The translations under genes and the position numbers were made by a program. 64,000 bases of DNA from Diplonema japonicum (taxonomy: Eukaryota > Protista > Euglenozoa: Diplonemea), in assembly GCA_964019335.1 (NCBI GenBank), contig OZ025724.1, forward strand, positions 186,001-250,000. Direction: 5' to 3'. The number at the start of each line of letters is the position of its first letter. Within the stretch, counting starts at the first letter, position 1. This document shows positions 5,657-41,333 of this stretch, piece after piece. Under the pieces are notes generated by a model that worked only from the letters and a program-made list of their open reading frames with translations, was not told the origin of the DNA and did no database searches.

Positions 5657-5693
<37 letters not shown>

Positions 5694-7340: not shown

Positions 7341-7378
<38 letters not shown>

Positions 7379-12169: not shown

Positions 12170-12750
12170 AAAAAGGATACACCAGAAGGTCAGGAAACCG
12201 TCCAGGACAACACCAAGGACACACCGATAGTACAAACCGACCAAACCTGCCCACGTTCTGCTCTCCAAATAACGCGGCGTCAAGATGTGCAAAGAAGAAG
12301 GAACATCAGTCCGGGTTAAGCAGCGTTCATTGGTCGGAGAAAAAAAAAACAAATAAACTATTACCGACGAACTTGCGCGCTACTTATTCTTACCTTCTCT
12401 TTCTAACCTCCATAAAAAAGTTTGAAATAGTTTCTTTCCCCCCGTTTGGTAACGTTAAAGGAGGTCTTGACGCCTTGTTCATCCACCACCTGTATTTATC
12501 CCTTTCAGCTTTTTCTTCTTCAGTGGTCATGCCGGCCTCCTCCCCAGCTTGCTTTTTCCATGACTGCGCCTGGGCGCCCTTGCGGAAAATGGAAAATACC
12601 AATTCCTTGGTGGTCGTCTCGATCTCTCGTTTACCATCAGAGGTGAAGTACTGAGGTTTCAGATGGGTACAGATAACGCAGAGTTTCAAAACCTTTTCAT
12701 TCCATTTTCTTTCCCTCAGAATCGGCCCCAGACGTCGGTCCAGATTCTTC
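12170..12750 (-). pseudogene. Degenerate coding fragment, possibly hAT-like transposase C-terminus
   Basis: Broken frame with THLKPQY, DKYRWW, VARKFV..SPTNERC, loosely like the hAT LDP.F / WW / LA+K+L..SER motifs. Weak. Confidence 0.2.
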
Positions 12751-12752
12751 TT

Positions 12753-13635: not shown

Positions 13636-14722
13636 ATCTCTATAACCTGCGCAAAGACCTTAAACCTTGGGTAGATGTTGCCCGGGAGATATTGTGAAGG
13701 CAACATTGGGTCACTAAGTAAGTGCGTACGAGAAAAATAAAAATAAAAGTACTACAAAAAAAAAAAAAGAAAGAAAATGTTGTAAAAGGAGGTAGGAACA
13801 CAATATTAGGAGAAGAAAAAGAAAATAGGGGGAAGAAGAAAAAAAATACTGACAAAAATCCCTTTTGCCAAAAGAAAAAGGGAAAAGGAAGAGAGGATAA
13901 GCGCAGAGAAGGAACAAGGGAATCGAACCGTGAGTTGTTATTTTATTTTGTTGTTTTTTTCCTTGTCACTTGTTTTTCGATTCCCTAGAAGAAGAAGAGA
14001 AGAAAGAAGAAAAAAAAAAAAAACGAGACCATGCATCGCTCAGTAACTTAATGTTGCTTTTTTCTTTGATTTCTTTCGTTCTCTTTTAGAGTTTTCTCCT
14101 TTTCTCGATACGTTTATGACAATCTTTTCTTTTATTATTATTATTTTTTTTCTCGTTTCTTTTTTTTTTTTTTTATTATTATTTTTTTGTCTAGCATTTT
14201 GTCATTTAGAGAAATAAAATGGGAAAAAAAAAAAAAAAAAAAGCAGCAGACACCCCTTTGTAAAATAAGGGGAGGAAAAAAAAAAAAGAAGAAGGGAAAA
14301 GAAAAAAGAAAAAGAGACAAATAAAAAAAGAAAACTCATCTAGCGTTTCGTCCTTTTCTTAAAAAAAGAGAAGAATAGGCGAGCGAGGTATTCTTTGTTT
14401 TGTTGGTAACGGCTACAAACTTTTTTTTTCCTACTAAAGAGATTTATCGGTGGTTATGATTTGCATCTTCGTAATCGGTTACAAAAAAAGAGACGTTTTG
14501 AAATCGGGTCATTCTTCTTTTTTTTCTTTTTTACTTCTGTTCAGAGGAAAAAAAAAGATGCAAACTATGGGACTTTCTTTTTTTTTTTTTCTTCTCTCTC
14601 CGTAAAGAAAAGAAAGCAATGCAGAGGGAGGTAAAAAAAAAAAAAAAAAAACAACAAAAAAAAAAAGAATTTCTTTTTTCTTTTTGAGTCGTACTGTGCT
14701 ATGTTTCAGTAAGAGAGTGTTC

Positions 14723-16346
14723 TCAGAACCCCTTATCATCCTTTGTTGTGGGGAAGATCTGCCCCACGGAGAGATTGACATCGTTAGGTGTGATCATGAG
14801 CTGGTTGCTCCCCTTGGAGAGGTGCTCTACAGAGTCAAGCTTCCTGAGCATGAGGAACATCTTGATCGCCTTGTCGAGGTCCATGGTGGCAGTGTCCTTC
14901 CCTGTGGTCTTCTCCATGAAGGCGACGAGCTTCATGGCCTCTGCCTCTCCCTCGATCCGCGCCTCCGTCTTCAGGTGGGACTTCTTCAACTCGATGAGCT
15001 CCTTCTTCATCTTCTCCTCCTCGATCTCTCCCCCGAGCCTGCTCAGAGCAACCTCGTTCTCACCCTTCTGCCTCTCCTTCTTCTTCAGCCTGTCCGCTGT
15101 CTCCTTGATGATGTCCTGCAGGATCGCATCAGTCTCACTCGAGGCACACTTGAAGCGCAGCACCTCCACCGAGATGAGGTCCACCCCCCTCTCCTCGTAG
15201 AAGGGGTCGTCGATGCACGCCCCGCGGATGATCTCGTTGAACTTCTCCAGGAAATCCAGCAGCTTGATCCTCGACACCTCTTGGATGATCTTTGAACGGG
15301 CGTGTGTGCACGTGTCCCCAGGGGCATCTGCCGTCTTCTCCACCAACATCGGGACGTCGATGATGGACCAGAAGAACGACACGTCCACACACAGCTCCAC
15401 GTTGTCCACTGTCCTGCAGTTGAACTCGTAGTTCATGTACGACGGGCGCCTGTCGAACTTCCACACAAGGTCCACAGAGGTGTGCTCCTTCCGCAGGTCT
15501 GTCGACCACTCTTGCTTCACGATCTCACAGAAGGGTGGGAGGAAGAAGTTCCTCAGTTCCGAATCCCCTCGCGCGTAGATGAACTTCCCTGTCTTGTCCT
15601 TGTACACCACTGTCTGGTACTCCTCAAGGATGATCTTCTCCTGCACCTCCACGATCTCTTGGTACTTCGAGGGGATGAACAGCCCCAGCTGCGAGATCTG
15701 CACAAGGCTTCCCGTGTCGGTGTTCCGCACCAGAACACAGTGGTGCTCGTCGACGTTCACCCCGCACTGCACCCCGCCTATCACCTCCTCCAAGGGGTCT
15801 GGAACCACACGCTGCTCCCCGACTTCGATCCTCAGCTTGCCCTCCTGGTCCTTGATCCGCAGGTACTCATTCTTTGCAAGGTTGTACACCTGTAGTGGTG
15901 GTGGTGGTGGGTCGTGGTGGCCATACCTTCTTGTAGGGAGAAATCTCATCATAAGGCCCAGGCTTGAACAGGCTTGGGCCCACAATGTTCTTCACTGTAC
16001 CGTTCTCACCTGTTGTGTTTATTTTTACAGTTTGCCGCTGCCGCTGCATACCATCAGTGATAGTGATGTACTGCTGCGCCGTCAGGTTTGGGCAGGTCCC
16101 AGAGTGCACCACAGCCTCACGCTCGTTCATCCACACAACGCTTGGCCCGTAGAACGACTTCTTCGACCCGAATTCGTCGTTCATCACAATGGAGTACTCC
16201 CCGGTCCCGAGCACCAGAGCCCCACGGGACTCCGTGCTGCTGCATGGCCCGTAGCACATGACCCCGGGGCCGTTCTCCACCGACCTCTCCCCATTGCACG
16301 AGGTGATCAGCAGCTGCTCGTTTTCCTCAAGGCACGAAAAGCACAT
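14723..16346 (-). CDS. MVP-like/SPFH protein, copy A; exons 16346-16052, 16009-15927, 15889-14723 (514 aa)
   Basis: Introns 16010-16051 (42 nt) and 15890-15926 (37 nt). Exons are near-identical to copy C, 4376 bp away. Confidence 0.75.
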
Positions 16347-16619
16347 TTTTATGTTTTTGTTAAGGCTTGTTTAAATGCTAAGGTTTCTTCATATACTATA
16401 TGGGCACAGAAGTTAGTTTAAAATGGATGAGAGAAAAACAAAAGAAATAAAAAAGAATAAAGAGCGAAAAATAATAAAAAAGAAAACAAGAAAAACGGCA
16501 TGAGTCTGGTGAAGAAGATATCTTTCTTTTATTTTCTTTATTTACTGTAAAAGGAAGGTTTACTGGAAGGAAAAATATCCGGAATTTCCTAAGGGGCCCA
16601 GGGCTACCTCTACCCCTCG

Positions 16620-16880
16620 CCGACAAGCTCCCATGCTGCTCAACCCACTGGCTTTGTTTGTGCGTTGTTCAAAAAAAAAGAGGGGGTACACAAACTTTTT
16701 CAGCTGTCTTATAGAGGCGTAGGGCGTAGGGCGTAGGCGTGTTTTTATGTCAAGAGGTTGGCATAAAATAGATGAGGCTGGGGGGACGAATACTATGTGT
16801 ACATTGGTTTCAGAAAACAAGTCCACATCGGCAATGAGGGGAGAAGCAAATCTTCTACTCCCAGAGCCGAAGCATTCCCT
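16620..16880 (-). mobile_element. Relic of pogo/Tc1-mariner (DDE_1-type) transposase
   Basis: ETNVHIVFVPPASSILCQPLDI matches the pogo/Tigger 'I.++F+P.N.T..LQPLD' motif. No TIRs found. Confidence 0.45.
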
Positions 16881-18084
16881 GGTTGGGGATTCCGGTGATT
16901 TTCCTTTTACAGTATTTTTCTTTTTCTTTTTTAAAGTTTTTTTTATTCAAATGCCTCACTGTCTGCTTAAAAGGACAAGCCTCTAAAGAAGAAAATTTGT
17001 TGTTTCACATGAGCAAAAAAAAAAAAAAAAAGGTGCAAATCTTTTTTTTTTTTTTTTGTCCCGCTCGGCACAAGTTGCACGCAAGGTAAAATCATTTGAA
17101 TGGTTAACAGAAGTGGAAAAAAGCGAAGTGGTGGAGAGATATTGAAGAAATACTTAAATAAACGGAGGGAACTGGCCGTTGTGCCGTTTGCGTCCGTACA
17201 CGGAAAGAAGCCTGGAGGTATATAACCCGTAGACACGTTGAAAACACGTTCTAAGAAATATATAAATTATATTATATTAGTTAAAGGAGGTCTGTGCGAG
17301 CCGCTCCCACCTACCTATCTGTTATATGGATCGTTTTCACTCTCACTCCGCTTAAAAAAAAAAAAAAAGAAGAACAAATCTTTTTATCTAACTCTTTCAT
17401 TTTGTTCACTAAAAAACTAGTTTGGCGCTCCATTTGTTTGTGCGCACGAGCGGAAAAAAAAAAGAAAAAAATTTGTATATATAGGTCACCTCTCCGCTAT
17501 TTGTCAATGCTTTTTTTGAAAAATGCGAAAAAACGCTTTTTTAAATTTTCACAAAAAAGGGGCAGCATGCAACCACAGGAAGTATGAAAGAAACGTGTAA
17601 ACAGTCCCGAAAACTCCGTTAAAGGGCTTGCTTTTTTGAGAAAAAATACAATGTGGGGGGCTGAAACATAAAAATGTGTGGTGTATGAACACAGTTTGCA
17701 CAACTTCGACATGGATTAAAGGGAAAAGTAGTGTAAATCATGCTTAATTTTCGCTGGGTTTAAAGAAAGTAAAAAAAAGTGACAGCACCTAGCCATGATT
17801 TTCTTATTCAAAATTTTATTCCACTTCTGGAGCAAATCCAGGCATGGCTTTTTGATTTTTACATTTAAAAAAATATGAAATTTGTGGGCAGTACTTTGTG
17901 ACAAATAGCGAAGAGGTGACCATATATATATATGAGTTAAAGGAAGTCTTTGTGAGACGCCCCCTTGTTCTCATCTTCTACCAAAAAGAAAAAAAAGAAA
18001 GTCATCAGTTGTATGCCACACCTATTTTACAGTCAAAGAACAGCTGCAAATCCTCCATCGTTTCTTTCGTGAGGTCGACACTGC

Positions 18085-21260: not shown

Positions 21261-22195
21261 TGGTTTTCCCCTCCCTTTTTTTTTTTTTTTTTTTTTTTTT
21301 TTCTCTTTTTTTTTTTTTGTGCTTGCATGTTATGAGGAAGAGTGTGAAAGGAAGACAAAAAGGGAGAAAAAAAAAGTATCGGAAAAAAAAAAAAAGAAAA
21401 AAAAAAAAAAAAGGAACTAAAAGTATCAAGATACGATTTTTTTTTTTTTTTTTTTTTTTCCCTCCCTCCTTCCCGCAATAACTCCGGACGAACGAACCCT
21501 TGAAAGGAGGGGAACGGAAATTTATAAAAAAGAAGAAGAAAAAAAAAGGTTTATAAAAATAAAAAAGAAAGACCCTCGCACTGCACGCAGATAGGCTCAG
21601 GTCATCAACAAAGTCCCCTGGGCTCCACAGCTCAGCTGAAAACAAAAAGGCTTTTTGTAACGACTCTTATCGCTTCATTTTTCATCGTTTTTTTTTTTTT
21701 TTTTTTTTTTCTCGCTCGCAAAGATTTTTTTAAAAATATAAAACCCGTAGAGGCCTTTAAAAAAAGAAATTCACTATGATAGGAACAAAGTGGTTAGCCG
21801 CCGCAGTGTCCCAAAAAAAAAAAAAAAAAAAAGAATAGGCGAGAAGTTAATTATTCTTTTTTGCGCGCGATGGTTACAATTTTTTTCTTCCCTAAAGCCG
21901 AAAAAGAGAAAACGCGTAAAAAAACGCATAAAAATCGCAGCCCAACATTTTTTTTTTTGTTGATGACTACAATTAAACAAGTGCTTTTTTTTTTTTTCTT
22001 TCTTTTTTTTTCTTCTGTTCCATAAAAAAAAGGGGGAGGGATAAGGGGGAAGAAGAAAAAAAAAAAAAAAAAAAACCCTCCTTTTTTTTTTTTTCTTTTT
22101 TTCCTTCCTGCGCACATCCCTGAAGCAACACTAAAAAAAAAAAAAAAACTATTCTTTTAAGGTATGCGTTTTTGCGCTCACCGGCCGCGCTGCGC

Positions 22196-25100
22196 TTAGT
22201 CCCCGTTGTCCCCGTTCTGGGGGCTCTGGCGGGTTCCTACTGCGGTGGTCATGCTGCGGGGCAGCCTTGTCGGTGTCTGCGACAGGTACCTGTCCCGCAA
22301 GCCTTCGATGCTACTCATGGTTCGTTCCGGGAGTACTGGCCTCCTGTCATACCCGTGTGTGGTCGGTCCTCCGATACAGCGTAGGGAGTTGACGCGCTCC
22401 ACTCGCGCCGCTGGGAACGCTACCCCTCTGCCATCAGCGTGGTACAGGTCCTGGACTCGTCTCAGCACATACCGTAGCCTCCTTGCCTTGACGCCCAGGT
22501 CCTCCACCTTGCCCACTTCCCCGCCGTCGTCCAGCGGCAGCTCCATCTCCCGCTCGAAGTCGAGGGCCAGCTCTAACGTCGTCACCGCCGTGTGCCGACC
22601 AGGCGCGTCATCCCACAGCAGGCCTCCCAACCACCTCAGCACCGGCCTCAGCAGCTTGTCCATCACCGTTCCTGACGCCCCCAGCCTTCGTAGTTCAGAC
22701 ACCGCCGGCGTCGGGTGCGCCCTCCCCGTCACGACCGCCCGCCACGGGTAAGCTTGTGTCTGCAGTGCGCGGTTCGCTTCCACCGCTGCATCCCTCCGCG
22801 TGACTACCTCCAGCAGGTACTTCTGCACCAGTAAGGCCCTTGGCTTGTCTTGGCAGCCTCTGGGCACCACCCCATGGAGCCTCGTCGCCTTCGGCATAGC
22901 TGCCGGGTCCAGGTTCGCGTACTCCACCTTGCTCTGCACCGCGACACCCGGCTCGCATCGCCAGAGGGCGTGCTCCAGCACCTCCGTGTAGCTGCCGAAC
23001 CGTTCCTCACACACGTCGCAGAGGTGCTGCAGCGGGTTGTTCGGTTCCTGCGCCACGCCCCGCGCTCCCGGGTAGACCGCAAACACCGCTCCTGCAATCA
23101 GCCTCCTCAGTCGGTACGCCGCCACTGGGTTGCCCGAGAGTGACCTCCACCACACGTTCGTGTCCGGGTCGGCTCCCTCCGGCATGCCGTCGTAGGAGTC
23201 CCTCCCTTCTGCTAGCTCGGCTGCCGTCATGGCCCTCGCCACCCGCCGGATCTCGTGCTTGCGCTCGCGTTCCGGCATGGCACCCAGCCCCACCACGAAA
23301 TTCCAGCCTTTCCCGATCGCCGGCAGCCATCTTCTCATCAGGGTCCCCACTGGCCCCAGGGCTTCAATATCGCACTCCCGGTACAGGGCGGCACACCTCC
23401 CCATCCGGTCCCACAGCTCCGTATCCGACCCGCCTACCTTCACCACTGTGCACAGCAGTCGGTAAAGTGTCACCACCAGCGGGTCCGTCGTGTGCCCTGG
23501 CAGCAAGACGTTCGCAACAGCACACGGCGAGCGCATCTTGAACTTCGGTCCCCAGAGGCACGTCGCAACACTCGCTCGGATTGTACCCGCATCCATTTTC
23601 GAGGGGGGTGCATAGGCAACACCGTAGAGGCAGGAGGGGAGAATGGAGCTGGTGAGGATCCTCGCCTTCTGTGTGAACCCCAGCGGCATGGCGGCCAGTC
23701 TCCCGCAAGCGCGTCCCATCGCCTCAAGGGGCTTCGCCCTGTGCTCGCCGTCCATACATACCCGGACTCCCAGGACGTTGATCTCCTTTTTGGCCGTGAA
23801 CACCTCACGTCCGCACTTCACCGTTCCGTGTTCTGCCGTTGTGAACAGGTCTGTCTTCCTCAGGTTGAGGTTCATCCCTGTCAGCAGAGAGAACTCGCAC
23901 ACCCCCGCTGCCGCCTTCTCCAGGGCGCTGAGCAGAGCTGCTATCAAGTAGACGTCGTCCGCGTATGACAGGGAATCAGCGCCGGGCACCTCCGCCATGA
24001 TGGCCTTCACCATCACCCCTACCAGCGCGTTCACCATCACCACCGAGATCGGGCACCCCTGCAGGATGCCGTTCGACGTAGCAAATTCGTCACCCACCCC
24101 TGTCGGGTATTTGAACCTCCGTCTGAGGGATTCGTACATCGTCTCCAGAGGGCGCAGTATGTTCTGATGCAGTCCCAGGTCCCCCACTAGCCCGAGCGCC
24201 ACTTCCCGCGGGATTCGGTCGAAGCACTTGACAAAGTCTAGCGCGAGCCCGTGCATCGGCGTTCCCGATAGCAGAGCTTCTTCGAGCTGCGTCGTCAGTT
24301 CCAGCAGTAGCGTGTCCGTACCCCTCCTCGACCTAAACCCATGTTGTGACGCGTCCGCCCACGACTCCTGCCAGACCAAGATGCGTCTCATCCTCGTTGT
24401 CGCCCACAGCCTGTACACGGCGCTGGTGACGGTGATCGGGCGGTGGTCCAACGGGGCTCTGCCCTCGCCTTTCGGGATCAGAGAGACAAGCGCTGTCAAT
24501 AGCGCCTCCGGCCACTTGCCGGTCTCCTCGACGATGTTGAAGAGCTGCGCCCACCTCTCGAGCAGCGCGTCAGGTATAGCCTTCAGTTCCGTGATCCTCC
24601 AGCCGTCGACGCCTGGGGTGCCCCTCGCAGGTCTGCTGTTTAACACCTCCCTGAGGTCGCCCCCCGTGATCGGCTCCAGTTCCATGGGGTGTTTATCGAT
24701 ATACCCGCCATACCTCTCTTTGAAAGCAGCGTAGGAAGGTCGGTCACTTTTGTCCGGGTACAGGTGGAAGACGGAGGCCCATGCCCCCCTCATCAGCGCG
24801 TCTATCTCCCCCAGATCTACCGTCAGCCTGCCGTCCTCCTTCGCGACTGCCAATGTGTGAACATCCTTGTCACCTCTAACGTAAGCTACGATCCTCCGCC
24901 TGTCGTCACGGAAATCAGCTGCCACCCGTTTCCTATAACTTGCCTCGTTCTCCAGGCGTTGCCGCATCACCGTGTCTCTGTCAGCCTGCTCCGCCGCAGC
25001 CTCCAGCTCCCGCAGTCCCACCAGCGCAGCCCCCAGGCTAGCCCCCCGTAGCAGGTCCTTGTCCGGCACGACCCCAAGGTGCATCTTCTCGGCCAGCTTA

Positions 25101-26329
25101 ACGATGTTCCGCCACGTCCCGTGCAGCATCGCTGGCAGCGTCCCCGGCCCACCACGCAGCAGTGCCTCGTTCAGCCCCGTCCTGAGCGCCACGATTTTCC
25201 TCCTGAGGCTGCCGTGCATCGTCTGGCCTCGTGCGGCAGCTCCCCCTGACGTCCCCGTCGACTTCGCTGCTACCATCTTCTCCGTCAGCTCTCGCGGCTC
25301 TCCTCTGCCTACGTACGACCTCACCTCCGTCACTCCGGCTGAGCTCAGCATATAGCGTTCGGTAGCGCAGCTCAGCAAGGCGTAGAGGCCCCCCACGTCC
25401 CTGGCGTCAACTGCTTGGTGGATTGCGTCGTCGCCGGCAAGCCCTTGGTCAAGATCAGCGTCGGGCGTCACCGCTCCCACCGGTAGCTCCTTCGGGAGGA
25501 AGAAACGTTTCGTCCGCTTCTTGAGCGTCGGCGTGAAGAGCTCAACGGACAGACACAGGTGCTCCCCGGTCCGCACCCTCTTGTGTGTCCAGAAGCGTTT
25601 CAGCGCTCCGGCAGCCACCGCGTTGGCCAGGACGAAGTCTATCCGCGTCTTCGTCTCCGTCCCGGGTCGTTCGAAGGTGTGGTCCGGTTCCCGTCCGTCC
25701 TTCTCGGCCTGAAGCGCCCCGACGTCGACCCAGTCGTTTTCCACCGCGTGTTTCAGCGTCGCTGACCCGGAAACGTCCGTGTTCAGATCCCCTAAGACCA
25801 GGATCGGCACCTCCCCGAGTTTAGCCCTCAGTTCAACGAGCAGCGAGTGTAGGAGTCGTTCCCTGTCAGCCTTCCCGTAGTGGCCGGCGCTGCAGTACAC
25901 CGTGATGACGTGGACCCATAGATCGCGGCCATCCACATTTATCATAGTGTGCAGCCACCTGTTCGGCTGCACTGTGATCCCCGATACTGGAGCCACGATG
26001 GCCGGCCTGCCTTTCTTCGTCAGCACAGCGACGCCCCCCCTTTGCCCAAGGTTTGGATTGAGTACCCCTGCCCTGTCCGGCGTGCCATCCTGAGCGCGAC
26101 CCCACAGGGGGTGATACCCGCCTTCATCAACAGCTTGCGACAGTTGGCGTTGACCGTGCTCAGTGAGTTTGGTCTCCTGCAGGCAGATCACCTCATCCTG
26201 CGTTGCTAGGACCTGCGGGAGCTTGTTGTGCAGGGACCCGACATTCACCGATGTGATCCGGAGCACGTCATCGAGCAGAGGTGGGCCACTAGCGCTTCCT
26301 CCACTCATCCCTGCCACAAGCTGTAATTG
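22196..26329 (-). CDS. Retrotransposon ORF2: APE endonuclease, reverse transcriptase, C-terminal CCHC knuckle
   Basis: APE: NVGSL, LQET, GDLNT, RIDFVL, GEH. RT: PGVDG, RPIT, QHGFR, DFVKCFD, GILQGCPIS, YADD. CDVC..EHALWRC. Open from the codon right after the ORF1 stop, in the same frame; first ATG at 26308. Confidence 0.95.
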   Translation of the reverse strand, partial: QLQLVAGMSGGSASGPPLLDDVLRITSVNVGSLHNKLPQVLATQDEVICLQETKLTEHGQRQLSQAVDEGGYHPLWGRAQDGTPDRAGVLNPNLGQRGGVAVLTKKGRPAIVAPVSGITVQPNRWLHTMINVDGRDLWVHVITVYCSAGHYGKADRERLLHSLLVELRAKLGEVPILVLGDLNTDVSGSATLKHAVENDWVDVGALQAEKDGREPDHTFERPGTETKTRIDFVLANAVAAGALKRFWTHKRVRTGEHLCLSVELFTPTLKKRTKRFFLPKELPVGAVTPDADLDQGLAGDDAIHQAVDARDVGGLYALLSCATERYMLSSAGVTEVRSYVGRGEPRELTEKMVAAKSTGTSGGAAARGQTMHGSLRRKIVALRTGLNEALLRGGPGTLPAMLHGTWRNIVKLAEKMHLGVVPDKDLLRGASLGAALVGLRELEAAAEQADRDTVMRQRLENEASYRKRVAADFRDDRRRIVAYVRGDKDVHTLAVAKEDGRLTVDLGEIDALMRGAWASVFHLYPDKSDRPSYAAFKERYGGYIDKHPMELEPITGGDLREVLNSRPARGTPGVDGWRITELKAIPDALLERWAQLFNIVEETGKWPEALLTALVSLIPKGEGRAPLDHRPITVTSAVYRLWATTRMRRILVWQESWADASQHGFRSRRGTDTLLLELTTQLEEALLSGTPMHGLALDFVKCFDRIPREVALGLVGDLGLHQNILRPLETMYESLRRRFKYPTGVGDEFATSNGILQGCPISVVMVNALVGVMVKAIMAEVPGADSLSYADDVYLIAALLSALEKAAAGVCEFSLLTGMNLNLRKTDLFTTAEHGTVKCGREVFTAKKEINVLGVRVCMDGEHRAKPLEAMGRACGRLAAMPLGFTQKARILTSSILPSCLYGVAYAPPSKMDAGTIRASVATCLWGPKFKMRSPCAVANVLLPGHTTDPLVVTLYRLLCTVVKVGGSDTELWDRMGRCAALYRECDIEALGPVGTLMRRWLPAIGKGWNFVVGLGAMPERERKHEIRRVARAMTAAELAEGRDSYDGMPEGADPDTNVWWRSLSGNPVAAYRLRRLIAGAVFAVYPGARGVAQEPNNPLQHLCDVCEERFGSYTEVLEHALWRCEPGVAVQSKVEYANLDPAAMPKATRLHGVVPRGCQDKPRALLVQKYLLEVVTRRDAAVEANRALQTQAYPWRAVVTGRAHPTPAVSELRRLGASGTVMDKLLRPVLRWLGGLLWDDAPGRHTAVTTLELALDFEREMELPLDDGGEVGKVEDLGVKARRLRYVLRRVQDLYHADGRGVAFPAARVERVNSLRCIGGPTTHGYDRRPVLPERTMSSIEGLRDRYLSQTPTRLPRSMTTAVGTRQSPQNGDNGD

Positions 26330-26335
26330 CTATTG
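26321..26335 (-). promoter_or_regulatory. Stop-codon readthrough signal CAA-TAG-CAA-TTA-CAG
   Basis: Minus strand reads (CAA)5 TAG CAA TTA CAG CTT GTG; fits the UAG-CAR-YYA consensus and separates two in-frame ORFs. Confidence 0.85.
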
Positions 26336-28624
26336 TTGTTGTTGTTGCACCGGCCCTTGGGGCAGCAGTAGCGGGGTGGCCGGGTGCTGTGGGTCGACCT
26401 GCATCTGTCCCGTTGGTGTGCTAGCGGTGGATCTCGTGCCGGACTTCGAGACCTTCCCGCCCTTTTCCTCACCTCCTGCCGTCCTCTTCCGACTAGCACT
26501 GCTCGTCAACGCCACCGCCGCCAACTCGGCAAGCTGTTGTTCCACGTCCATCAAACGCATTTGCGTGCTCTCCTGCGCCTTCTGCATCCGAGTGATCTTT
26601 GCCAGGGCCTCTCGTAGTGCCTGCGCCATCGCCTGCTGGTCCGCCTGCCTCCTCTCCTGCTCGAGTCGAAGCTTCGCCATCGTCTCCTCGTGTCGGCGGT
26701 CCTTTTCGGCGTACTCGGCCTCCTTGGACTGCCACCACGAGTGGAACGATTGCTCGGCTCCCTCACTCCGCGTCGGACGCTTGGCAGGTCGAGGTTGTGC
26801 GGCGGGCCGCAGGGGTGGGAAGTCGCTCGTCTTGTTCTTGGTCGCAGGTGGAGGGGGAGGCTTATGTGCTGGCTTCTTTGCCCCACACTTGCTCCCCCAC
26901 GTGGAGTGCTTCAGGAGGTCTCCTTCCGCACCGTGCGGCCGGATCAGCCACTGCTCGTCGCCGCTCTCGAACATGAGGCCTGGTGGATCAGCCTCCGACG
27001 CTACCAGCCATGTGCAGGTTTTTCTGCCACTCGCCAGTACGCGCACCGCTTGTGCTGCCCACCCGATCGCGCGCAGCCTCTGCTCCACCACCAGCCCCGG
27101 GACCTGCGTTCCCATCCCCTTGACCGTGAAGGGGGCCCCCTTGATCGGCACCGGACGGCGGTCCTTCACCTTCTTCGCGGTCCTGTTGTGGAGGAAGGCC
27201 ACCATTTCTTCTAGTCGTTCTGCTTTCACGCGGATCCCGTACTCTCCCGTGCCCTTGCTCCATGCCACCCCCAGCCCGTCTGCCTGCTTTGCGAGGAGAG
27301 CGGCGTCAGTCGCCGAGGCGCCTTCGATCCACAGAACGGGAAATTTGCTCGTCGATTGGTGTGGGGGACGTACATAGACTCCACCGGTCCCACTGTGTCG
27401 GTACAGGGTCTCCAGGTCCGCTCGGGCAACTACCATGCACAGCTCGGCGCAGCCGTCCCTCTTCGATCCCGTCCTCGGCTCGACCCGCGCCGTGCACTTG
27501 CTCGCGGCCCAGCGAACGAGGTCCCTCCTTGCGTCGTGGTAGTCCTTCTTGGTCCTCTCCACCAAGTAGACCTCGGCAGCACAGCTCTCGACCGCGGGGA
27601 CTACCACCGTCTTCTTGACCTGCTTCAGGGGTGCGCCGCCCTTCGCCGTCACCCACAGCCTGCGCACACACCTGCCCTTGCCGCCGTCGGTCGCCAGCAC
27701 CACCTGCTCCAGTACTCCCGGCATCGTGGGGAGTTTGGCCCTGGACACCAAGGTGGGTCCTTCCTTGTCGTCTGCGTCCATCAGCCACAGGGACGCCACC
27801 TTTTCCATACCTGCAGGGACGAGCAGGACCGATCTGTTCCTGCCCACCTGCGGCGTCCAGTCGCCGGAGAATGCCTCCCAGCCGTCACTCACCAGCACCG
27901 CGTCGTCTTTCGTCGTTGCCTCGTTGTCACCGTCCTCGGCGTCCTTCGTTTCCTTAGCCTTTCGGGCTGCTGCCGCTCTCCTCTTCGCGCTCTCGCTCAG
28001 GAAGGGCATGGGCACCTTCGGGTTGTTGTAGGTGCCTGCTGCCGGGAGCGTTGTGCCCTCACGCACCGACAGCGCCACGTAATGGGCGGCAGCGAACCCC
28101 AGGTATATGGGGGTGCTCTCTACCGCGTTGCGCGAGGGGAAGGAGGTGCACAACAGCTCCCCGTCCTTCACCTGGTAGCAGGCCAGGTGGCGCCGGCACA
28201 CCACGCTGAGCGCGAGGAGCTGCAGGATGTCCCCCCACGCTCCGTCCTTCACTGCTTGCACATATTCCCCGTAGCGCTCGGGGGCATACAGCAGTGCACT
28301 GTTGTCGGTTGATGCCAGGTGGCTAGCCACCAGCTCCCTCAAGGCCGATCCAGCAGAGGTGCCCTGATGGATCGCTACTGATGTCGCCTCGTAGAGGCAG
28401 TCCCCCTCCGTCTTGGAGAAGTCTCTGATCGAGAACCCTTCTCCCAGCTTCGCCTGAAGCTCCGCCTTCGCCTTGCCCACCTCGCTTCCCGTTCCCGTCC
28501 CGCGGCCGGAGCCTTCGCCGCTACCACCACCCCCCATGTGGCAGCGTTGCCCGGGGTTCAACCTCGAGGAGGTCGCTCCCACCGCGCTGGACGTCGATGA
28601 TAGTGTTGGTGTTGATGTTGCCAT
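26330..28624 (-). CDS. Retrotransposon ORF1: N-terminal OTU-like cysteine protease and C-terminal coiled coil (764 aa)
   Basis: EGDCLYEA (Cys76), LRELVASHL, AWGDILQLLALS, IYLGFAAAHYVAL (His181). Heptad-like region EETMAKLRLEQ...LAELAA near the C-terminus. Confidence 0.85.
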   Translation of the reverse strand: MATSTPTLSSTSSAVGATSSRLNPGQRCHMGGGGSGEGSGRGTGTGSEVGKAKAELQAKLGEGFSIRDFSKTEGDCLYEATSVAIHQGTSAGSALRELVASHLASTDNSALLYAPERYGEYVQAVKDGAWGDILQLLALSVVCRRHLACYQVKDGELLCTSFPSRNAVESTPIYLGFAAAHYVALSVREGTTLPAAGTYNNPKVPMPFLSESAKRRAAAARKAKETKDAEDGDNEATTKDDAVLVSDGWEAFSGDWTPQVGRNRSVLLVPAGMEKVASLWLMDADDKEGPTLVSRAKLPTMPGVLEQVVLATDGGKGRCVRRLWVTAKGGAPLKQVKKTVVVPAVESCAAEVYLVERTKKDYHDARRDLVRWAASKCTARVEPRTGSKRDGCAELCMVVARADLETLYRHSGTGGVYVRPPHQSTSKFPVLWIEGASATDAALLAKQADGLGVAWSKGTGEYGIRVKAERLEEMVAFLHNRTAKKVKDRRPVPIKGAPFTVKGMGTQVPGLVVEQRLRAIGWAAQAVRVLASGRKTCTWLVASEADPPGLMFESGDEQWLIRPHGAEGDLLKHSTWGSKCGAKKPAHKPPPPPATKNKTSDFPPLRPAAQPRPAKRPTRSEGAEQSFHSWWQSKEAEYAEKDRRHEETMAKLRLEQERRQADQQAMAQALREALAKITRMQKAQESTQMRLMDVEQQLAELAAVALTSSASRKRTAGGEEKGGKVSKSGTRSTASTPTGQMQVDPQHPATPLLLPQGPVQQQQQ

Positions 28625-28689
28625 AATGTTTCTTTTAACCCAAATTCAGAACCCCTGAAAAACGTTCTTTTTTTTTTTTTTTTTTTTTT

Positions 28690-33012: not shown

Positions 33013-36000
33013 TTATATACTGACAGCCTCTCTTCGGAAGCTTGTGCTCGAGGAGACCGGTGAATAATCCGAGTATGGCGAGTGTTGTGGGTGTGAGTGT
33101 GGTGCAGAGTATACTTGTTGTTCGTGCATGCCCTCTGTCATTTCCATAATTTCACGCAAAGTAACATCATTGGAGCCACGCTTCTTCCAGATGACGAAGG
33201 CCAGCATCCCACACATGGCAAGGAGGGAAACGATAGCTACAAGGATCCAGATCCACACGGTGCTGCCCCCATCGCTGCCGCACTCAGCTGCTTCACCGAC
33301 CTTTGTGACGGTCCCGTCGTTCTTGCATGTGCACACATAGTCCCCTTGCACCCCGAAGTCCTTGTCTTCGCACAGCTGGTCTTCCTTCGTGCCACACACC
33401 TCCTTCTCCTCACACTCGTCCTTCCCCTGCGCACCCGGTGCTTCCATCGGCAATGGCACACTTGTCTCCGGTGCAGTGCCAGGACCCATCGTGGGCATCG
33501 CCGTTGCAGGCGCTTTGGTGTCAGGAGCGTCAGTCGTTGGTGGGTAGGTCGACCCAGCAGGCAACGTGGTAGGTTCTGCAGTTGAAGGGGCATTCGTCCT
33601 CGGTGCATCGGTATTCGGTGGGTAGGTCGATCCAGCAGGCAACATAGTAGGTTCCGCAGTTGAAGGGGCACCAGTGGCGGGTGGGTTAGTACTGGGGGCA
33701 TTCGTCCTTGGTGCGTCAGTCGTTGGTGGGTAGGTCGACCCAGCAGGCAACATAGTAGGTTCTGCAGTTGAAGGGGCATTCGTCCTCGGTGCATCGGTAT
33801 TCGGTGGGTAGGTCGATCCAGCAGGCAACATAGTAGGTTCCGCAGTTGAAGGGGCACCAGTGGCGGGTGGGTTAGTACTGGGGGCATTCGTCCTTGGTGC
33901 GTCAGTCGTTGGTGGGTAGGTCGACCCAGCAGGCAACATAGTAGGTTCTGCAGTTGAAGGGGCATTCGTCCTCGGTGCATCGGTATTCGGTGGGTAGGTC
34001 GATCCAGCAGGCAACATAGTAGGTTCCGCAGTTGAAGGGGCACCAGTGGCGGGTGGGTTAGTACTGGGGGCATTCGTCCTCGGTGCGTCAGTCTCTGGCG
34101 GGTAGGTCGACCCAGCAGGAAGCACAGTGGGTGCCATCGTATCAGGTGCAGTGGTGACTGGTGCTGAAGTAACAGGTGCCACAGTGTCACGGGAGGCAGT
34201 GTCGGGTGAGTATGTCTTCCCAGCGGGGAGAGCTGTAGGTGCCATCGTGTCAGGAGCAGATGTTGCTGGTGCCACAGTATTGGGTGCTGTTGTATCAGGG
34301 GCATTAGTGGCAGGTGCTGAAGTCACTGGAGCCATGGTAGCAGGTGCCATCGTGTCAGGTGCGAATGTCTTCCCAGCAGGAAGAGGCGTGGGTGCAACTG
34401 TGTCAGGTGCAGATGTTGCTGGTGCCATAGTGTCGGGTGCATTAGTGGCAGGTGCTGAAGTCATTGGAGCCATGGTAGTAGGTGCCATCGTGTCAGGGGC
34501 AGCAGTGTCGGGTGAGAATGTCATCCCTGCGGGGAGAGGTGTGGGTGCGACAGTATCAGGTGCAGATGTTGCGGGGGCTGTTGTGTCTGGAGCCATGGTA
34601 TCAGGGGCGCTAGTTGCAGGTGCTGATGTAACAGGTGCCATCGTAGCAGGTGCCGTTGTGTCAGGCGCGCCAGTAATAGGAGCGGAGGTGTCTGGGGCAG
34701 GTGTAGCGGGAGCAAACGTTTTACCTGCGGGGAGAGGCGTGGGGGCAACAGTGTCAGGGGCAGATGTTGCGGGTGCCGTTGTGTCCGGGGCCATGGTATT
34801 CGGTGCTGATGTGTCAGGGGAGGCAGTGATCGGGGCTGTGGTAGTTGGTGCCATCGTGTCAGGGGCGGAAGTGTCGGGTGCGAATGTCTTCCCGGCGGGA
34901 AGGGGCGTGGGTGCAACAGTGTCAGGGGCAGATGTTGCGGGTGCCATCGTGTCAGGGGAAATAGTAACTGGTGCCATTGTGGTGGGGGCTGAGGTAGCTG
35001 GTGCCATCGTGTCAGGGGCGGAGGTGTCGGGTGCGAATGTCTTCCCAACAGGAAGAGGCGTAGGGGCAACAGTGTCAGGGGCAGATGTTGCGGGTGCCAT
35101 CGTGTCGGGTGCTGAAGTCACTGGAGCCATGGTATTCGGTGCCATTGTGCTGGGAGCTATAGTGTCAGGGGAGGCAGTGTCGGGTGCGAATGTCTTTCCA
35201 ACAGGAAGAGGCGTGGGTGCAACTGTGTCAGGTGCAGATGTTGCTGGTGCCATAGTGTCGGGTGCCATCGTGTCGGGTGCAGTAGTAGCGGGTGCTGAAG
35301 TCACTGGCGCCATGGTATTCGGCGCCGTTGTGCTGGGAGCCATCGTGTCAGGTGCCATCGTGTCAGGTGCCATCGTGTCAGGGGCGGAAGTGTCTGGTGC
35401 GAATGTCTTCCCAACGGGAAGAGGCGTGGGTGCCATCGTGTCAGGAGCAGATGTTGCTGGTGCCACAGTATTGGGTGCTGTTGTATCAGGGGCATTAGTG
35501 GCAGGTGCTGAAGTCATTGGAGCCATGGTAGCAGGTGCCATCGTGGTGGGGGCTGTGGTGTCAGGTGCCATCGTGTCAGGGGCAGCAGTGTCGGGTGCGA
35601 ATGTCATCCCCACAGGAAGAGGTGTGGGTGCGACAGTATCAGGTGCAGATGTTGCGGGGGCTGTTGTGTCTGGAGCCATGGTATCAGGGGCGCTAGTTGC
35701 AGGTGCTGATGTAACAGGTGCCATAGTTGCGGGAGCCATTGTAGCGGGAGATGATGTATCTGGTGCCACTGTGTCAGGGGCAGCAGTAACAGGTGAGGGG
35801 GTGTCAGGAGGGGTGGTGGTTGGTGCCATCGTATCAGGAGCGAGTGTCATCCCAATAGGTAGTGGAGTAGGCGCAATCGTAATAGGTGCCATCGTGTCAG
35901 GTGCTGCTGTATCAGGAGCTGTTGTGTCGGGTGCTGTTGTGTCAGGAGCCGTTGTGTCAGGAGCTGTCGTGTCAGGAGCTGTTGTGTCAGGAGCTGTCGT

Positions 36001-37713
36001 GTCAGGAGCCGTTGTGTCAGGAGCCGTTGTGCCAGGAGCTGTCGTGTCAGGAGCTGTTGTGCCAGGAGCTGTCGTGTCAGGAGCCGTTGTGCCAGGAGCT
36101 GTTGTGTCAGGAGCTGTCGTGTCAGGAGCTGTCGTGTCAGGAGCCGTTGTGCCAGGAGCTGTCGTGTCAGGAGCTGTTGTGTCAGGAGCTGTCGTGTCGG
36201 GTGCTGTCGTGTCAGGAGCTGTCGTGTCAGGAGCCGTTGTGCCAGGAGCTGTCGTGTCAGGAGCTGTTGTGTCAGGAGCTGTTGTGTCAGGAACTGTCGT
36301 GTCGGGTGCTGTCGTGTCAGGAGCTGTTGTGTCAGGAGCTGTTGTGTCAGGAGCTGTCGTGTCGGGTGCTGTCGTGTCAGGAGCCGTTGTGCCAGGAGCT
36401 GTCGTGTCAGGAGCTGTTGTGTCAGGAGCTGTTGTGTCAGGAGCTGTCGTGTCGGGTGCTGTCGTGTCAGGAGCAGTCGTGTCAGGAGCATCGGTCATCG
36501 GAGCAGGTGTAGGTGCTATCGTCGGTGCATGAGTGTCTTCACAGCCTCTCCACTTGAGTAACTCAGCACCGACAGGCTTCGACCAGCTGCCCGCCGAGTC
36601 GTCGTTGGCCACCCAGAAGAAAGCCCCCCCGTTGCAGGGGTAGGCGTCGTGGAGGTCCTGCAGCACTTTAATGGTCGCGGCAGCATTGGCATTAGAGCCC
36701 GTCGCGCTGCAGTCGTTGATGCAGAAGCCGAAGATAACCTTCTTCGGGTCACCGCCGAAGATGTCGTTGACCATGTCCGTGTAGTGCGTGAGTGCGGCAA
36801 CGGAACCCGACCCCGTTCCAGAGATGCCGTCCTTTGCAGCCATCGTGACACCGTTGTAGTATTGTGGCATGAGAAAGTCGAGCGAGCTGCTCACAGACTT
36901 AAGCGTGTTGAAGTAGCCTGTGCCCTTAACAAGGTCAATATCCATCGGGGCGTGGGTCACCTCCTTGTCCGATGAAAGAGAGGAACGCAGCCCGGTAGTC
37001 ACATCGGCCAGGAACTTCTGCGCTTCAGCTCCTTTCGAAAATGAAGACCCCCTCTGCCCGTTCTCATAGTAATACTCGTAGTCGATGTCCACACCGTCGA
37101 AGCCCTGCGCGTCCACGATGGTTTTAAGCTGCGAGACAACAGAAGCCTCTTTCCCGTAGCAGTACTCCCAGCAGTCGTTGTTCCCGTCCCAGGAGCCTCC
37201 CATGCCGGCACCGCCGAAGGAAAGGATGACCTTTTTGCCAGCGGCCTTCCATGCGGCGACGAGGGTGGGGTTCACTGCGTTGCTGCAGATCGGGACGGGT
37301 GAGGCGATCTTACATGCTGCATCACAGTTGTTCTTCCCTGGGGCCCATGTGTAGGTTACGGCGAAGGACACGAGGATGTGGGTGTACTGTGCGTACTGCT
37401 CGATGGTGGGGCAGGCGTGCCAGTTCCCGAGGTATGCGATGAGCCGATGGTCGTGAGAAGCACCGACGTTCGCCCCTGGGGGCAGCGGGGGGGCTGGGGT
37501 GCTGGGAACCGTACCTGCCATCGCTGGGCACCACGTGTCCCCTGCACCTTGACAACCAGCCTGCGTCCCACTACCCATGTAGCAAGGTGCCGCCCACCCT
37601 GCGTGGTAACACTCAAAACCAGAACCTTTGTTGACACACTCTTGGCATTGTGCAACCGTCTGCCCGTCGACCGACCATGCCACCGCTACTAGCAGTGCAA
37701 AAACAACACGCAT
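33013..37713 (-). CDS. Membrane-anchored GH18 chitinase-like protein with ~1000-aa Pro/Thr/Ala stalk, EGF-like module and TM helix (1566 aa)
   Basis: Signal peptide MRVVFALL after (T)nCCCGCAG; KVILSFGG and DGVDIDYE (DxxDxDxE); DECEE..C..CED..DYVCTC; TM VWIWILVAIVSLLAMCGMLAFVIW-KKR. Confidence 0.9.
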   Translation of the reverse strand: MRVVFALLVAVAWSVDGQTVAQCQECVNKGSGFECYHAGWAAPCYMGSGTQAGCQGAGDTWCPAMAGTVPSTPAPPLPPGANVGASHDHRLIAYLGNWHACPTIEQYAQYTHILVSFAVTYTWAPGKNNCDAACKIASPVPICSNAVNPTLVAAWKAAGKKVILSFGGAGMGGSWDGNNDCWEYCYGKEASVVSQLKTIVDAQGFDGVDIDYEYYYENGQRGSSFSKGAEAQKFLADVTTGLRSSLSSDKEVTHAPMDIDLVKGTGYFNTLKSVSSSLDFLMPQYYNGVTMAAKDGISGTGSGSVAALTHYTDMVNDIFGGDPKKVIFGFCINDCSATGSNANAAATIKVLQDLHDAYPCNGGAFFWVANDDSAGSWSKPVGAELLKWRGCEDTHAPTIAPTPAPMTDAPDTTAPDTTAPDTTAPDTTAPDTTAPDTTAPGTTAPDTTAPDTTAPDTTAPDTTAPDTTAPDTTVPDTTAPDTTAPDTTAPGTTAPDTTAPDTTAPDTTAPDTTAPDTTAPGTTAPDTTAPDTTAPDTTAPGTTAPDTTAPGTTAPDTTAPGTTAPDTTAPDTTAPDTTAPDTTAPDTTAPDTTAPDTTAPDTAAPDTMAPITIAPTPLPIGMTLAPDTMAPTTTPPDTPSPVTAAPDTVAPDTSSPATMAPATMAPVTSAPATSAPDTMAPDTTAPATSAPDTVAPTPLPVGMTFAPDTAAPDTMAPDTTAPTTMAPATMAPMTSAPATNAPDTTAPNTVAPATSAPDTMAPTPLPVGKTFAPDTSAPDTMAPDTMAPDTMAPSTTAPNTMAPVTSAPATTAPDTMAPDTMAPATSAPDTVAPTPLPVGKTFAPDTASPDTIAPSTMAPNTMAPVTSAPDTMAPATSAPDTVAPTPLPVGKTFAPDTSAPDTMAPATSAPTTMAPVTISPDTMAPATSAPDTVAPTPLPAGKTFAPDTSAPDTMAPTTTAPITASPDTSAPNTMAPDTTAPATSAPDTVAPTPLPAGKTFAPATPAPDTSAPITGAPDTTAPATMAPVTSAPATSAPDTMAPDTTAPATSAPDTVAPTPLPAGMTFSPDTAAPDTMAPTTMAPMTSAPATNAPDTMAPATSAPDTVAPTPLPAGKTFAPDTMAPATMAPVTSAPATNAPDTTAPNTVAPATSAPDTMAPTALPAGKTYSPDTASRDTVAPVTSAPVTTAPDTMAPTVLPAGSTYPPETDAPRTNAPSTNPPATGAPSTAEPTMLPAGSTYPPNTDAPRTNAPSTAEPTMLPAGSTYPPTTDAPRTNAPSTNPPATGAPSTAEPTMLPAGSTYPPNTDAPRTNAPSTAEPTMLPAGSTYPPTTDAPRTNAPSTNPPATGAPSTAEPTMLPAGSTYPPNTDAPRTNAPSTAEPTTLPAGSTYPPTTDAPDTKAPATAMPTMGPGTAPETSVPLPMEAPGAQGKDECEEKEVCGTKEDQLCEDKDFGVQGDYVCTCKNDGTVTKVGEAAECGSDGGSTVWIWILVAIVSLLAMCGMLAFVIWKKRGSNDVTLREIMEMTEGMHEQQVYSAPHSHPQHSPYSDYSPVSSSTSFRREAVSI
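33530..34120. repeat. Coding tandem repeat, 186-bp (62-aa) unit x ~3
   Basis: aggttctgcagttgaagggg recurs at 33571, 33757 and 33943. Confidence 0.9.
35900..36490. repeat. Coding 15-bp minisatellite, (D/G)TTAP x ~39
   Basis: gtcaggagctgt(c/t)gt units, encoding the pentapeptide stalk. Confidence 0.95.
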
Positions 37714-40652: not shown

Positions 40653-41283
40653 CCTTCTTTCAAATGCTATGTGAAAATATGTTGGGGAAAAAAAAAAAAA
40701 AAAAAAAAAAAACATTTCGCATTACACACACACATATGATGCAAACTACACATATTAGTTAAAGGAGGTTCTTGTGAGACGCCCCCTTGTTCTCCTCCAC
40801 TACCTATGCATCAAGACTACTAGTTCGTTGAAACGACACAAAAGGCTGCCTTACCCTAGGTTACCAAGTGAAGCAGTTTTTGTTGTACCCTCTTTAGGGA
40901 GTCAGTGGAATCTGACCAGAAATTCGGCCCAAGGGGCCCCCCGTTCATCATTTCTTTTTTGTTGAAAAAAAGAAAGAAAATGCGGTGACTACCGTCTCAT
41001 AGTAAATATAAAGGAAACAAAAAAAAGAGAAAAATAATTCTTTATGACTATATGTCTTTGTTGTTCGCACGAACAAAAAAGGTTTTTTAAAAAGCTGCGA
41101 AAGTTTTTGCTCGGCACAAGTTGCATATAGTTATAAAATCATTTTTTGAAAGATAAATATTTGTAACTAAAAAAAAACTCACACGAGGCACTCGAGGAAA
41201 CAGAAGCAATCTTGCCTCTCTACAAGGGAAACAGGTTGCCTTCTGCAACACTTAGAACCCCACAAGTAGCGATAAAAAAAAAA

Positions 41284-41333
41284 CTATTCTTTTAAGGTAT
41301 GCGTTTTTGCGCTCACCGGCCGCGCTGTACTTA
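41284..41333 (-). mobile_element. Solo 3'UTR stub of the OTU-LINE
   Basis: 44 nt identical to 22149-22192, with similarity continuing to the stop codon; T-runs on both sides of the sense strand. Confidence 0.85.

Follow-up and report, generated by a model that had tools for sequence, protein, structure and literature searches.

Cysteine proteases of the ubiquitin and SUMO type have been described on several kinds of mobile elements, and so far no function has been demonstrated for the ubiquitin-family proteases that transposons carry. OTU domains are found on Helitron/Helentron and Ginger1 proteins, for which a role of the ubiquitin pathway in transposition has been proposed (PMC2836005, PMC6431247). 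Among the non-LTR retrotransposons, Ulp1-like proteases are reported for NeSL and for one Utopia family, Utopia-1_TSP (PMC4640811), while the Dualen protease is called Josephin-related (PMC9977147). A 2026 preprint gives an N-terminal OTU domain on one ORF2 protein (ORF2p) of the dinoflagellate Symbiodinium necroappetens and a Josephin domain on an ORF2p of Haematococcus (PMC13405545). Here we report an OTU domain that heads ORF1p, the product of the first open reading frame (ORF) of a long interspersed nuclear element (LINE), on the minus strand of a 64,000-nucleotide stretch of the diplonemid Diplonema japonicum (GenBank assembly GCA_964019335.1, contig OZ025724.1, positions 186,001 to 250,000 of the forward strand). 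This whole stretch is called the window below, and all coordinates refer to it. A preliminary description of the element, made from its letters, had stated that some other non-LTR elements carry Ulp1-type proteases, which is borne out for NeSL and Utopia.

The OTU of the nairovirus L protein is a deubiquitinase and deISGylase, and those of arterivirus nsp2 (PLP2) and tymovirus PRO combine deubiquitination with polyprotein cleavage. Ubiquitin-type proteases cleave after Gly-Gly, and the arterivirus and tymovirus OTU-fold proteases cleave their polyproteins after G-G, G-A or G-S. LINEs that bear a 2A peptide together with an apurinic endonuclease (APE) are known from the L1Tc/ingi elements of trypanosomes. 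A eukaryotic set of 2A-bearing ORF2 proteins is described in the preprint (PMC13405545). About 2,500 transposon gene models are reported for the D. papillatum genome, and in the main text of that report 'OTU' stands for operational taxonomic units only (PMC10161547). Our searches of the full-text literature, a scope outside which most subscription journals and Repbase Reports lie, turned up no description of diplonemid LINEs with an OTU or of any LINE whose ORF1p carries one.

An OTU domain heads ORF1p

ORF1 (26330..28624, minus strand) encodes 764 residues up to a TAG stop, and its product consists of an OTU domain, a basic linker, a tentative RNA recognition motif (RRM)-like region and a helical C-terminal tail. 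The OTU cysteine-protease domain had been noted at 28067-28441, which is minus-strand coding sequence for residues 62-186. Judged by the secondary structure of an AlphaFold2 (AF2) model, the folded domain is slightly larger and spans residues 48-187 (28064..28483, minus strand). The Pfam OTU profile (PF02338) matches residues 72-161 (E 8.1e-8) and at 33.3 bits exceeds the curated cut-off of 23.3. In the PDB, phmmer matches OTUD1 (4bop, E 9e-4) as well as the OTU of a viral L protein (11nq, E 0.019). The AF2 model of residues 46-205, built on a 12-row alignment, has a mean predicted local distance difference test (pLDDT) value of 88.4 and a predicted template modelling score (pTM) of 0.84. Foldseek comparison with the PDB gave 85 matches at E<=1e-3, and the 35 matches listed are all OTU-domain proteins. 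The top folds are OTUD5/DUBA (3tmp, template modelling score (TM) 0.72) and OTUD1 (4bop, TM 0.71/0.75), followed by yeast Otu1 and OTUD3 (4bou, rank 8); A20, Cezanne, a Wolbachia OTU, many nairovirus OTUs and the Otu2-40S complex (8c83, rank 25) stand lower. The match is far beyond chance, and the N-terminus of ORF1 is confirmed as a genuine OTU-family domain.

The sequence motifs also lie where the preliminary description had put them: GDCLY at residues 74-78 (Cys76), WG at 130-131 and HY at 181-182 (His181). The predicted catalytic Cys76 (codon 28397..28399, minus strand, in the motif TEGDCLY) opens the helix of residues 76-86, which is helix 31-41 in the numbering of the AF2 model, and the predicted catalytic His181 (codon 28082..28084, minus strand, in the motif AAHYVAL) leads into the beta-strand of residues 182-187. 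A cysteine at the start of a helix and a histidine before a strand, as seen in the model, are the usual papain-like arrangement. Five residues, G74, C76, R96, G131 and H181, are invariant in all 12 aligned OTUs (this ORF1, three D. japonicum sequences, the relatives P0022, P0027, P0008 and P0009, and four unrelated stand-alone OTUs), and the rows outside the family are 19-36% identical. The proposal that a non-LTR ORF1 begins with an OTU domain is thus upheld by profile search, by predicted fold and by the conservation of both the cysteine and the histidine. Three positions before the cysteine this element has Glu73 and the canonical aligned members have Asp; an Asp at that place is the acidic third residue in OTUD, Otu1 and vOTU proteins.

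The domain belongs to the element

The OTU domain is part of the retrotransposon rather than of a neighbouring gene, as can be seen from the continuous G+C content, from contigs of four sequencing runs that bridge ORF1 and ORF2, from relatives that join an OTU to an RRM-like region and from relatives in which OTU, APE and reverse transcriptase (RT) are fused. The downstream ORF2 (22196..26308, minus strand) is a single ORF of 1370 residues in which Pfam detects the APE endonuclease (Exo_endo_phos, residues 21-230) and the RT (RVT_1, residues 612-850), followed by a Cys/His motif near residues 1095-1118 and a long C-terminal region, so that the name 'retrotransposon ORF1' given earlier to the upstream frame was correct. 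Its closest solved relatives in the PDB are human L1 ORF2p (E 3.5e-17 to 1.6e-16) and then R2 proteins.

That the OTU frame is a host gene merely adjoining a 5'-truncated LINE is extremely improbable. Neither a target-site duplication nor a mapped 5' end frames the element, as such a reading would have it, but ORF1 and ORF2 share one frame across a gap of 21 nucleotides and lie on a common G+C plateau, and both subfamilies of the element described below retain the junction. The ORF1 family is moreover multicopy in D. papillatum. The bridging contigs and the fused relatives contradict the host-gene reading.

Relatives of ORF1 and ORF2

When 1.84 billion representatives were searched exhaustively with ORF1 by HMMER, no more than 12 proteins reached E<=1e-3. 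One of these, P0022, is annotated in D. papillatum as a 'hypothetical protein'; it has an OTU, an RRM-like region and a charged tail, and it represents an 11-member 90% cluster spread over different contigs; the result therefore names a multicopy set of D. papillatum 'hypothetical proteins'. P0027 likewise has an OTU and an RRM-like region, P0023 (D. japonicum) is an OTU alone at 36% identity, and in P0024 the RRM-like region and the tail run uninterrupted into an APE domain in one ORF. The OTU-first layout of ORF1 is retained between lineages that are just 21-36% identical, and across three Diplonema species the OTU recurs in several LINE families that have diverged from each other. A separate search aimed at longer, fused relatives of ORF1 had no match, which is weak evidence. 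A bacterial Ig-repeat protein (P0021), the second-best representative match through eight short stretches, was taken as a repeat or compositional match and was not used.

Two further kinds of ORF1 relatives were observed. P0037 (D. papillatum) and P0027 have about 100-200 extra residues ahead of the OTU, which look RNase H-like by eye and gave no Pfam match at E<=0.05. P0028, an ENA protein of 1535 residues, combines a C-5 cytosine DNA methylase (residues 105-301) with homology to the RRM-like part of ORF1 (residues 1161-1320), and could be a relative of the element that carries a methyltransferase.

The ORF2 search returned 18 relatives at E<=1e-3, and 12 of these were scanned with Pfam. Two carry an OTU directly before APE-RT in one ORF: P0008 from D. 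ambulator (39.9 bits) and P0009 from D. japonicum, which at 22.6 bits lies just below the cut-off and has both the Cys and the His box. The OTU of our element and that of P0008 are only 27% identical, a low figure that hints at independent gains; the OTU on ORF1 and the OTU on ORF2 may be separate acquisitions or the outcome of an old shuffle. Other relatives have a 2A-type motif right before the APE and no OTU, namely DIETNPGP in P0005, NIETNPGP in P0010 and HPNPGP in P0007 and P0011. Since only 14 residues precede the motif in P0005, its ORF probably extends upstream through a stop or a frame change. P0082 (D. papillatum) is a single ORF of 2372 residues in which an ORF1-like region, DVHPNPGP, APE, RT and RNase H follow each other, again with no OTU. 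NPGP precedes the APE in two of 11 related metagenome loci (L001:100-1143 and L007:243-3335), and the remaining 2A motifs in the set listed, these two loci included, read DVEQNPGP and EASNPGP. In L002, L004, L008 and P0024, finally, the N-terminal extension is long and contains neither an OTU nor a 2A. No protein among the relatives examined has an OTU together with a 2A. The closely related LINE families of this diplonemid lineage show four layouts: an OTU on ORF1p, an OTU fused to ORF2p, a 2A with no OTU, and neither.

A side observation concerns ORF2. The minus strand at 674-1393 encodes the C-terminal ~240 residues of another ORF2, which belongs to a different family within this LINE lineage and shares 45.6% identity with residues 1126-1367 of the ORF2 described here.

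A predicted leaky stop and a Gly-Gly at the ORF1-ORF2 junction

The junction reads ...CAA CAA TAG CAA TTA CAG CTT GTG GCA GGG ATG..., with ORF2 in the same frame as ORF1. The ORF1 stop lies in A-TAG-CAA-TTA (26324..26333, minus strand), and between it and the ORF2 ATG there is an in-frame spacer of 21 nucleotides, or seven codons, that would be read as QLQLVAG (26309..26329, minus strand). UAG-CAR-YYA is the type I leaky-stop consensus, and A-UAG-CAA-UUA is tabulated for tobamoviruses (PMC3542737), with which the context found here agrees letter for letter. The pattern TAGCARYYA occurs once across both strands of the 64 kb, where 2.0 occurrences are expected, and the full 10-mer is expected 0.02 times by chance. 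On this sequence context we predict that the ORF1 TAG is a type I leaky stop. The shared frame, the TAG followed by seven codons and the tobamovirus type I context lend support to the premise of a readthrough polyprotein on which the preliminary description had built.

A second subfamily was recovered in contigs of four runs, a second organism included, and differs at the junction in 49 of ~418 aligned bases (~12%). Rebuilt, it reads ...QQQ* QLQLSAG MSGGSASGPP..., with TAG-CAA-TTA, the frame and MSGG all retained, and its ORF1 C-terminus matches the transcript-derived P0002. With 12% of the bases changed, a 10-mer would escape change by chance with a probability of ~0.3, so the conservation of the stop context is consistent with a leaky stop and is not decisive. 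Two other readings of the junction were set aside. An apparent stop-less fusion of ORF1 and ORF2 in one contig variant, with a 6-nucleotide gap at the stop, is an alignment artefact caused by three versus five Gln codons before the same TAG-CAA-TTA. Spliced-leader trans-splicing ahead of ORF2 is judged unlikely by eye, since the CAA-rich end of ORF1 contains no pyrimidine tract.

Behind the spacer, ORF2 begins with MSGG, and its Gly3-Gly4 (26297..26302, minus strand) would be a candidate cleavage site for a ubiquitin-type protease. MSGG is also present in the diverged subfamily and in P0004, MGG takes its place in P0003 and GKGG in the fused P0024, and in this element, P0003, P0004 and P0024 the Gly-Gly lies 8-14 residues ahead of the first APE strand. 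The OTU-to-APE linkers of the fused relatives hold R-G-A 17 residues (P0008) and T-G-S 11 residues (P0009) ahead of that strand. These features could be explained if ORF2p were made solely as a TAG-readthrough fusion of ~2142 residues, in the manner of a gag-pol protein, from which the OTU would release APE-RT by cutting after Gly3-Gly4, and if in sister families a 2A skipping peptide achieved the same separation. The exact tobamovirus signal, the only one of its consensus in the 64 kb, the in-frame ORF2 only seven codons further on, and the retention of stop context, frame and MSGG in the ~12% diverged subfamily are all as such a processing protease would have them. The same can be said of the Gly-Gly before the APE in four families, with G-A and G-S at a comparable place in P0008 and P0009, and of P0024, where an ORF1-like region and the APE share one unbroken ORF. 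The OTU-less relatives P0005, P0007/P0011, P0010, L001, L007 and P0082 carry an NPGP 2A just before the APE, and the two devices never coincide in a protein among the relatives examined.

However, all four families retain an ATG after the spacer, which suits termination-reinitiation equally well and would make cutting unnecessary. The motif count carries little weight among related families, given how common G-[GAS] dipeptides are, the stop context may be unchanged by chance as calculated above, and L002, L004, L008 and P0024 are extended N-terminally with neither OTU nor 2A. A predicted complex of the OTU domain with a 36-residue junction peptide scored 0.09 against a mark of 0.34 and is no evidence either way. 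Overall, a role of the OTU as processing protease appears somewhat unlikely, although it is the strongest alternative to the reading favoured below. We also think it unlikely that the whole element is a retrovirus-like LINE, in which ORF2p would exist only as the leaky-stop fusion and the OTU would be a maturation protease, cutting at Gly-Gly and interchangeable with 2A within the lineage.

The recoding site bears on a further possibility, namely that the OTU antagonises ribosome rescue by stripping quality-control ubiquitin from stalled or collided ribosomes as LINE translation passes the leaky stop or, in relatives, the 2A. This idea is raised in the preprint for deubiquitinases on 2A-bearing ORF2p, where it is also pointed out that a viral OTU relieved stalling-linked protein loss at a 2A-stop construct (PMC13405545). 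Both the predicted recoding site of this element and the presence of OTUD3 (rank 8) and the Otu2-40S complex (rank 25) among the fold matches would agree with it. However, OTUD5 and OTUD1 outrank the ribosome-directed OTUs in those matches, OTU and 2A are never together in the proteins examined, and the idea is wholly indirect; we regard it as improbable.

A proposed deubiquitinase on ORF1p

The reading that we favour, with chances that we judge to be about even, is that the ORF1p OTU acts as a deubiquitinase on the ribonucleoprotein of the element or on host factors. With most translation ending at the ORF1 TAG, the OTU would greatly outnumber ORF2p, and each ORF1p molecule coating the LINE RNA would carry one. 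In that position it could remove ubiquitin, or a ubiquitin-like modifier, from ORF1p, from ORF2p or from nearby host factors, and so spare the ribonucleoprotein from proteasomal or ubiquitin-dependent restriction. The nairovirus L-protein OTUs provide an analogous protection of a polymerase complex, and a similar role has been suggested for the OTU and Ulp1 domains of Helentron, Ginger1 and NeSL elements. The deubiquitinase, fusion-cleavage and ribosome-rescue readings are not mutually exclusive; the preliminary description had put forward two possible functions, release of APE-RT and protection from ubiquitin-based defence.

Several observations weigh against a deubiquitinase. A processing protease would account at least equally well for the leaky stop, for an ORF2 that is in frame and for the conserved Gly-Gly. 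The residue three positions before the cysteine, Glu in this element, is Gln in P0022, Ala in P0027 and Gly in the stand-alone OTU P0025, so the third member of the triad is uncertain and the triad may be incomplete. Not all members of the lineage have an OTU, which Pfam found in two of the 12 ORF2 relatives and in none of the six metagenome ORFs scanned. Four D. japonicum transcript variants (P0001, P0002, P0047 and P0048) lack Ala-Trp-Gly at residues 129-131, the conserved WG included, and in P0047 and P0048 Pfam finds no OTU at E<=0.01. From this loss and the lost Pfam match it follows that damage to the domain is tolerated in at least one of the variants that are expressed. In addition, one contig has a 15-nucleotide in-frame deletion within the OTU domain, which speaks against a strict need for an intact one.

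The transcript variants deserve a closer description. Two close matches to ORF1 are ORFs of D. japonicum transcripts (Trinity assembly, EukProt); they start and stop where ORF1 does and are 96-97% and 80-82% identical to it. All of the Trinity isoforms, P0001, P0002, P0047 and P0048, share one common 5' part with GECLY and the Ala-Trp-Gly deletion. The corresponding 9-nucleotide deletion is not among the indels listed for the contigs of the four runs.

The damaged variants, together with the many relatives that have no OTU, could also mean that the domain is a decaying passenger, a fragment of a host OTU that ORF1 acquired a single time at its 5' end and that plays no part in transposition. 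Such a history is quite improbable, however, considering that the OTU-first ORF1 is kept at 21-36% identity in D. japonicum, D. papillatum and other assemblies, that the cysteine and histidine stand in 12 of 12 sequences, and that the copy in the window is intact, with neither the Ala-Trp-Gly loss nor the 15-nucleotide deletion. By our own count on the alignment, the two subfamilies also differ about as much in the OTU part as they do elsewhere in ORF1, and the subfamily at 80% identity retains both Cys and His. The contig variants listed differ at 10 or more codons in residues 62-186, and five of ten changes are synonymous, among them His181 CAT>CAC in a diverged contig; these ten codons are a sample from a variant table with 354 further rows and give no rate.

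The four sister layouts and the leaky stop form a natural comparison set, in which protection by a deubiquitinase and maturation by a processing protease can be tested directly against each other. Diplonema papillatum is transformable.

The remainder of ORF1p

In the AF2 model of residues 225-620 the overall pLDDT is 59.8, and residues ~350-565 (26930..27577, minus strand) reach 67-90 per 10-residue block, with one block at 53. This part contains three modules of the beta-alpha-beta-beta-alpha type, which on the model, the Foldseek matches and the motifs common with relatives we tentatively take as tandem RRM-like domains. The best Foldseek matches of the model are multi-RRM proteins, raver1 RRM1-3, Prp24, U2AF65 and NONO/SFPQ, with E-values of 3.7e-4 to 1e-2 and low global TM, and a phmmer search of the PDB with residues 201-764 found nothing (best E 0.96). 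ORF1p may tentatively be regarded as an RNA-binding protein, like other LINE ORF1 proteins. By eye, its C-terminal ~80 residues look like a long charged helix.

Extent, ends and copies of the element

On the basis of the G+C plateau, the two ORFs and the sequences at both ends, the whole LINE copy extends over 22133..28660 (minus strand). G+C is 0.62-0.64 over 22-28 kb, which comprises both ORFs, as against 0.39-0.53 in the flanks. The 5' end is bounded between 28625 and ~28668, that is at most ~40 nucleotides upstream of the ORF1 ATG, and immediately before it lie the stop codon of the preceding gene and an A-run. The LINE is co-oriented with this gene and lies 66 nucleotides past its stop.

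At the other end, the 3' untranslated region or tail (22149..22195, minus strand) comprises the 47 nucleotides after the ORF2 stop and ends in ...AAAAGAATAG, and a run of 16 T follows (22133-22148, minus strand). There is no poly(A) at the 3' end of the element; in both copies, at 22 kb and at 41 kb, the tail AAAAGAATAG is followed by the T-run, which suggests insertion beside pyrimidine tracts. No target-site duplication was found by eye at either end. Some LINE clades have neither a target-site duplication nor a poly(A) or simple-repeat tail, and the lack of both here does not exclude membership of the LINEs for that reason.

The copy at 41 kb (41274-41327, minus strand) is a tail only, consisting of the last ~44 nucleotides of the LINE and the T-run, and is an exact 54-nucleotide match to 22139-22192; several contigs of other runs break at 22192-22198. 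The lone tail could have arisen by extreme 5' truncation at a single point, or it could be a non-autonomous partner reduced to the tail. In all four sequencing runs examined, which are from one organism, the summed depth of contigs is 20-60 fold higher at the 3' end than over ORF1, increasing for instance from ~55-177 to 1,519-2,329 in run X1 and from ~3,100-17,700 to 144,000-356,000 in run X6, figures which come from assembled contigs and are hence a rough measure of copy depth. This rise and the tail-only copy together make the pattern of a multicopy, mostly 5'-truncated LINE.

Surroundings of the element in the window

Nearly all the long ORFs with domain matches in the window are intronless and on the minus strand, with A- or T-runs between them, and this same-strand array fits a polycistronic gene cluster of the euglenozoan kind. 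Two stop-free frames of 422 codons with a Band 7/SPFH domain, at 10350-11615 and 14726-15991 (both minus strand), lie ~4.4 kb apart and are identical over the first 40 residues compared; they are a recent tandem duplication. The product of the frame at 33013-37713 (minus strand) looks like a mucin-like surface chitinase: behind its glycoside hydrolase family 18 domain come ~1,000 residues made up of APDTT/APDTM-type repeats, and a membrane anchor is present at the C-terminus. A pectin acetylesterase match (PF03283, E 1.8e-89) at 41507-43150 (minus strand) is in line with the gains of carbohydrate-degrading genes reported for Diplonema (PMC10161547).

Comparison with known systems

With the cellular OTUs, OTUD5/DUBA, OTUD1 and yeast Otu1, the ORF1p domain shares the fold (TM 0.61-0.75) and the G-x-C-[LQ]-[FY], WG and H-[YF] boxes. 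It differs from them in its low identity (13-22%), in having Glu for Asp three residues before the cysteine, and in its place at the head of a putative RNA-binding protein of a retrotransposon, whereas they are host enzymes. The viral OTUs, those of Crimean-Congo haemorrhagic fever virus (CCHFV), Kupe and Hazara among others, have the same fold (TM 0.58-0.64) and are likewise N-terminal on the replication protein of a selfish, RNA-templated replicon. With the arterivirus and tymovirus OTUs a double role in connection with a recoded polyprotein is possibly held in common, though cleavage is only a candidate role here. Unlike in the viruses, the replicon is a retrotransposon, and its OTU is on the gag-like ORF1p instead of the polymerase.

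In regard to other transposons, the Helentron/Helitron and Ginger1 elements also have a PF02338 OTU fused to an element protein, but in those DNA transposons it is joined to the transposase or Rep-helicase, whereas the present element is a LINE with the OTU on ORF1p. NeSL, Utopia, Dualen and the Symbiodinium and Haematococcus elements come nearer, for in all of them a ubiquitin/SUMO-type cysteine protease is N-terminal on a non-LTR protein, as it is here, and the ORF2p-OTU layout of Symbiodinium necroappetens is repeated by P0008 and P0009. In contrast to these other non-LTR proteases, the OTU described here heads a separate, RRM-like ORF1p, precedes a tobamovirus-type leaky stop and resides in a diplonemid host. 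Compared with the 2A-bearing APE LINEs, sister families carry (D/N)(I/V)E(T/Q)NPGP, DVHPNPGP or HPNPGP before the APE, whereas this element has an OTU and a leaky-stop context and no 2A. The type I readthrough of tobamoviruses and benyviruses uses the same 10-nucleotide context with a polymerase-type ORF in frame behind it; in this case the context is in a LINE of a euglenozoan, and readthrough is predicted from the sequence.

OTU, Ulp1 and Josephin proteases on mobile elements are known, and in the light of these earlier cases the present one is a variation on the known mobile-element proteases rather than something unprecedented. What is new is an OTU borne on ORF1p together with a predicted leaky stop, and the sister architectures found beside it.

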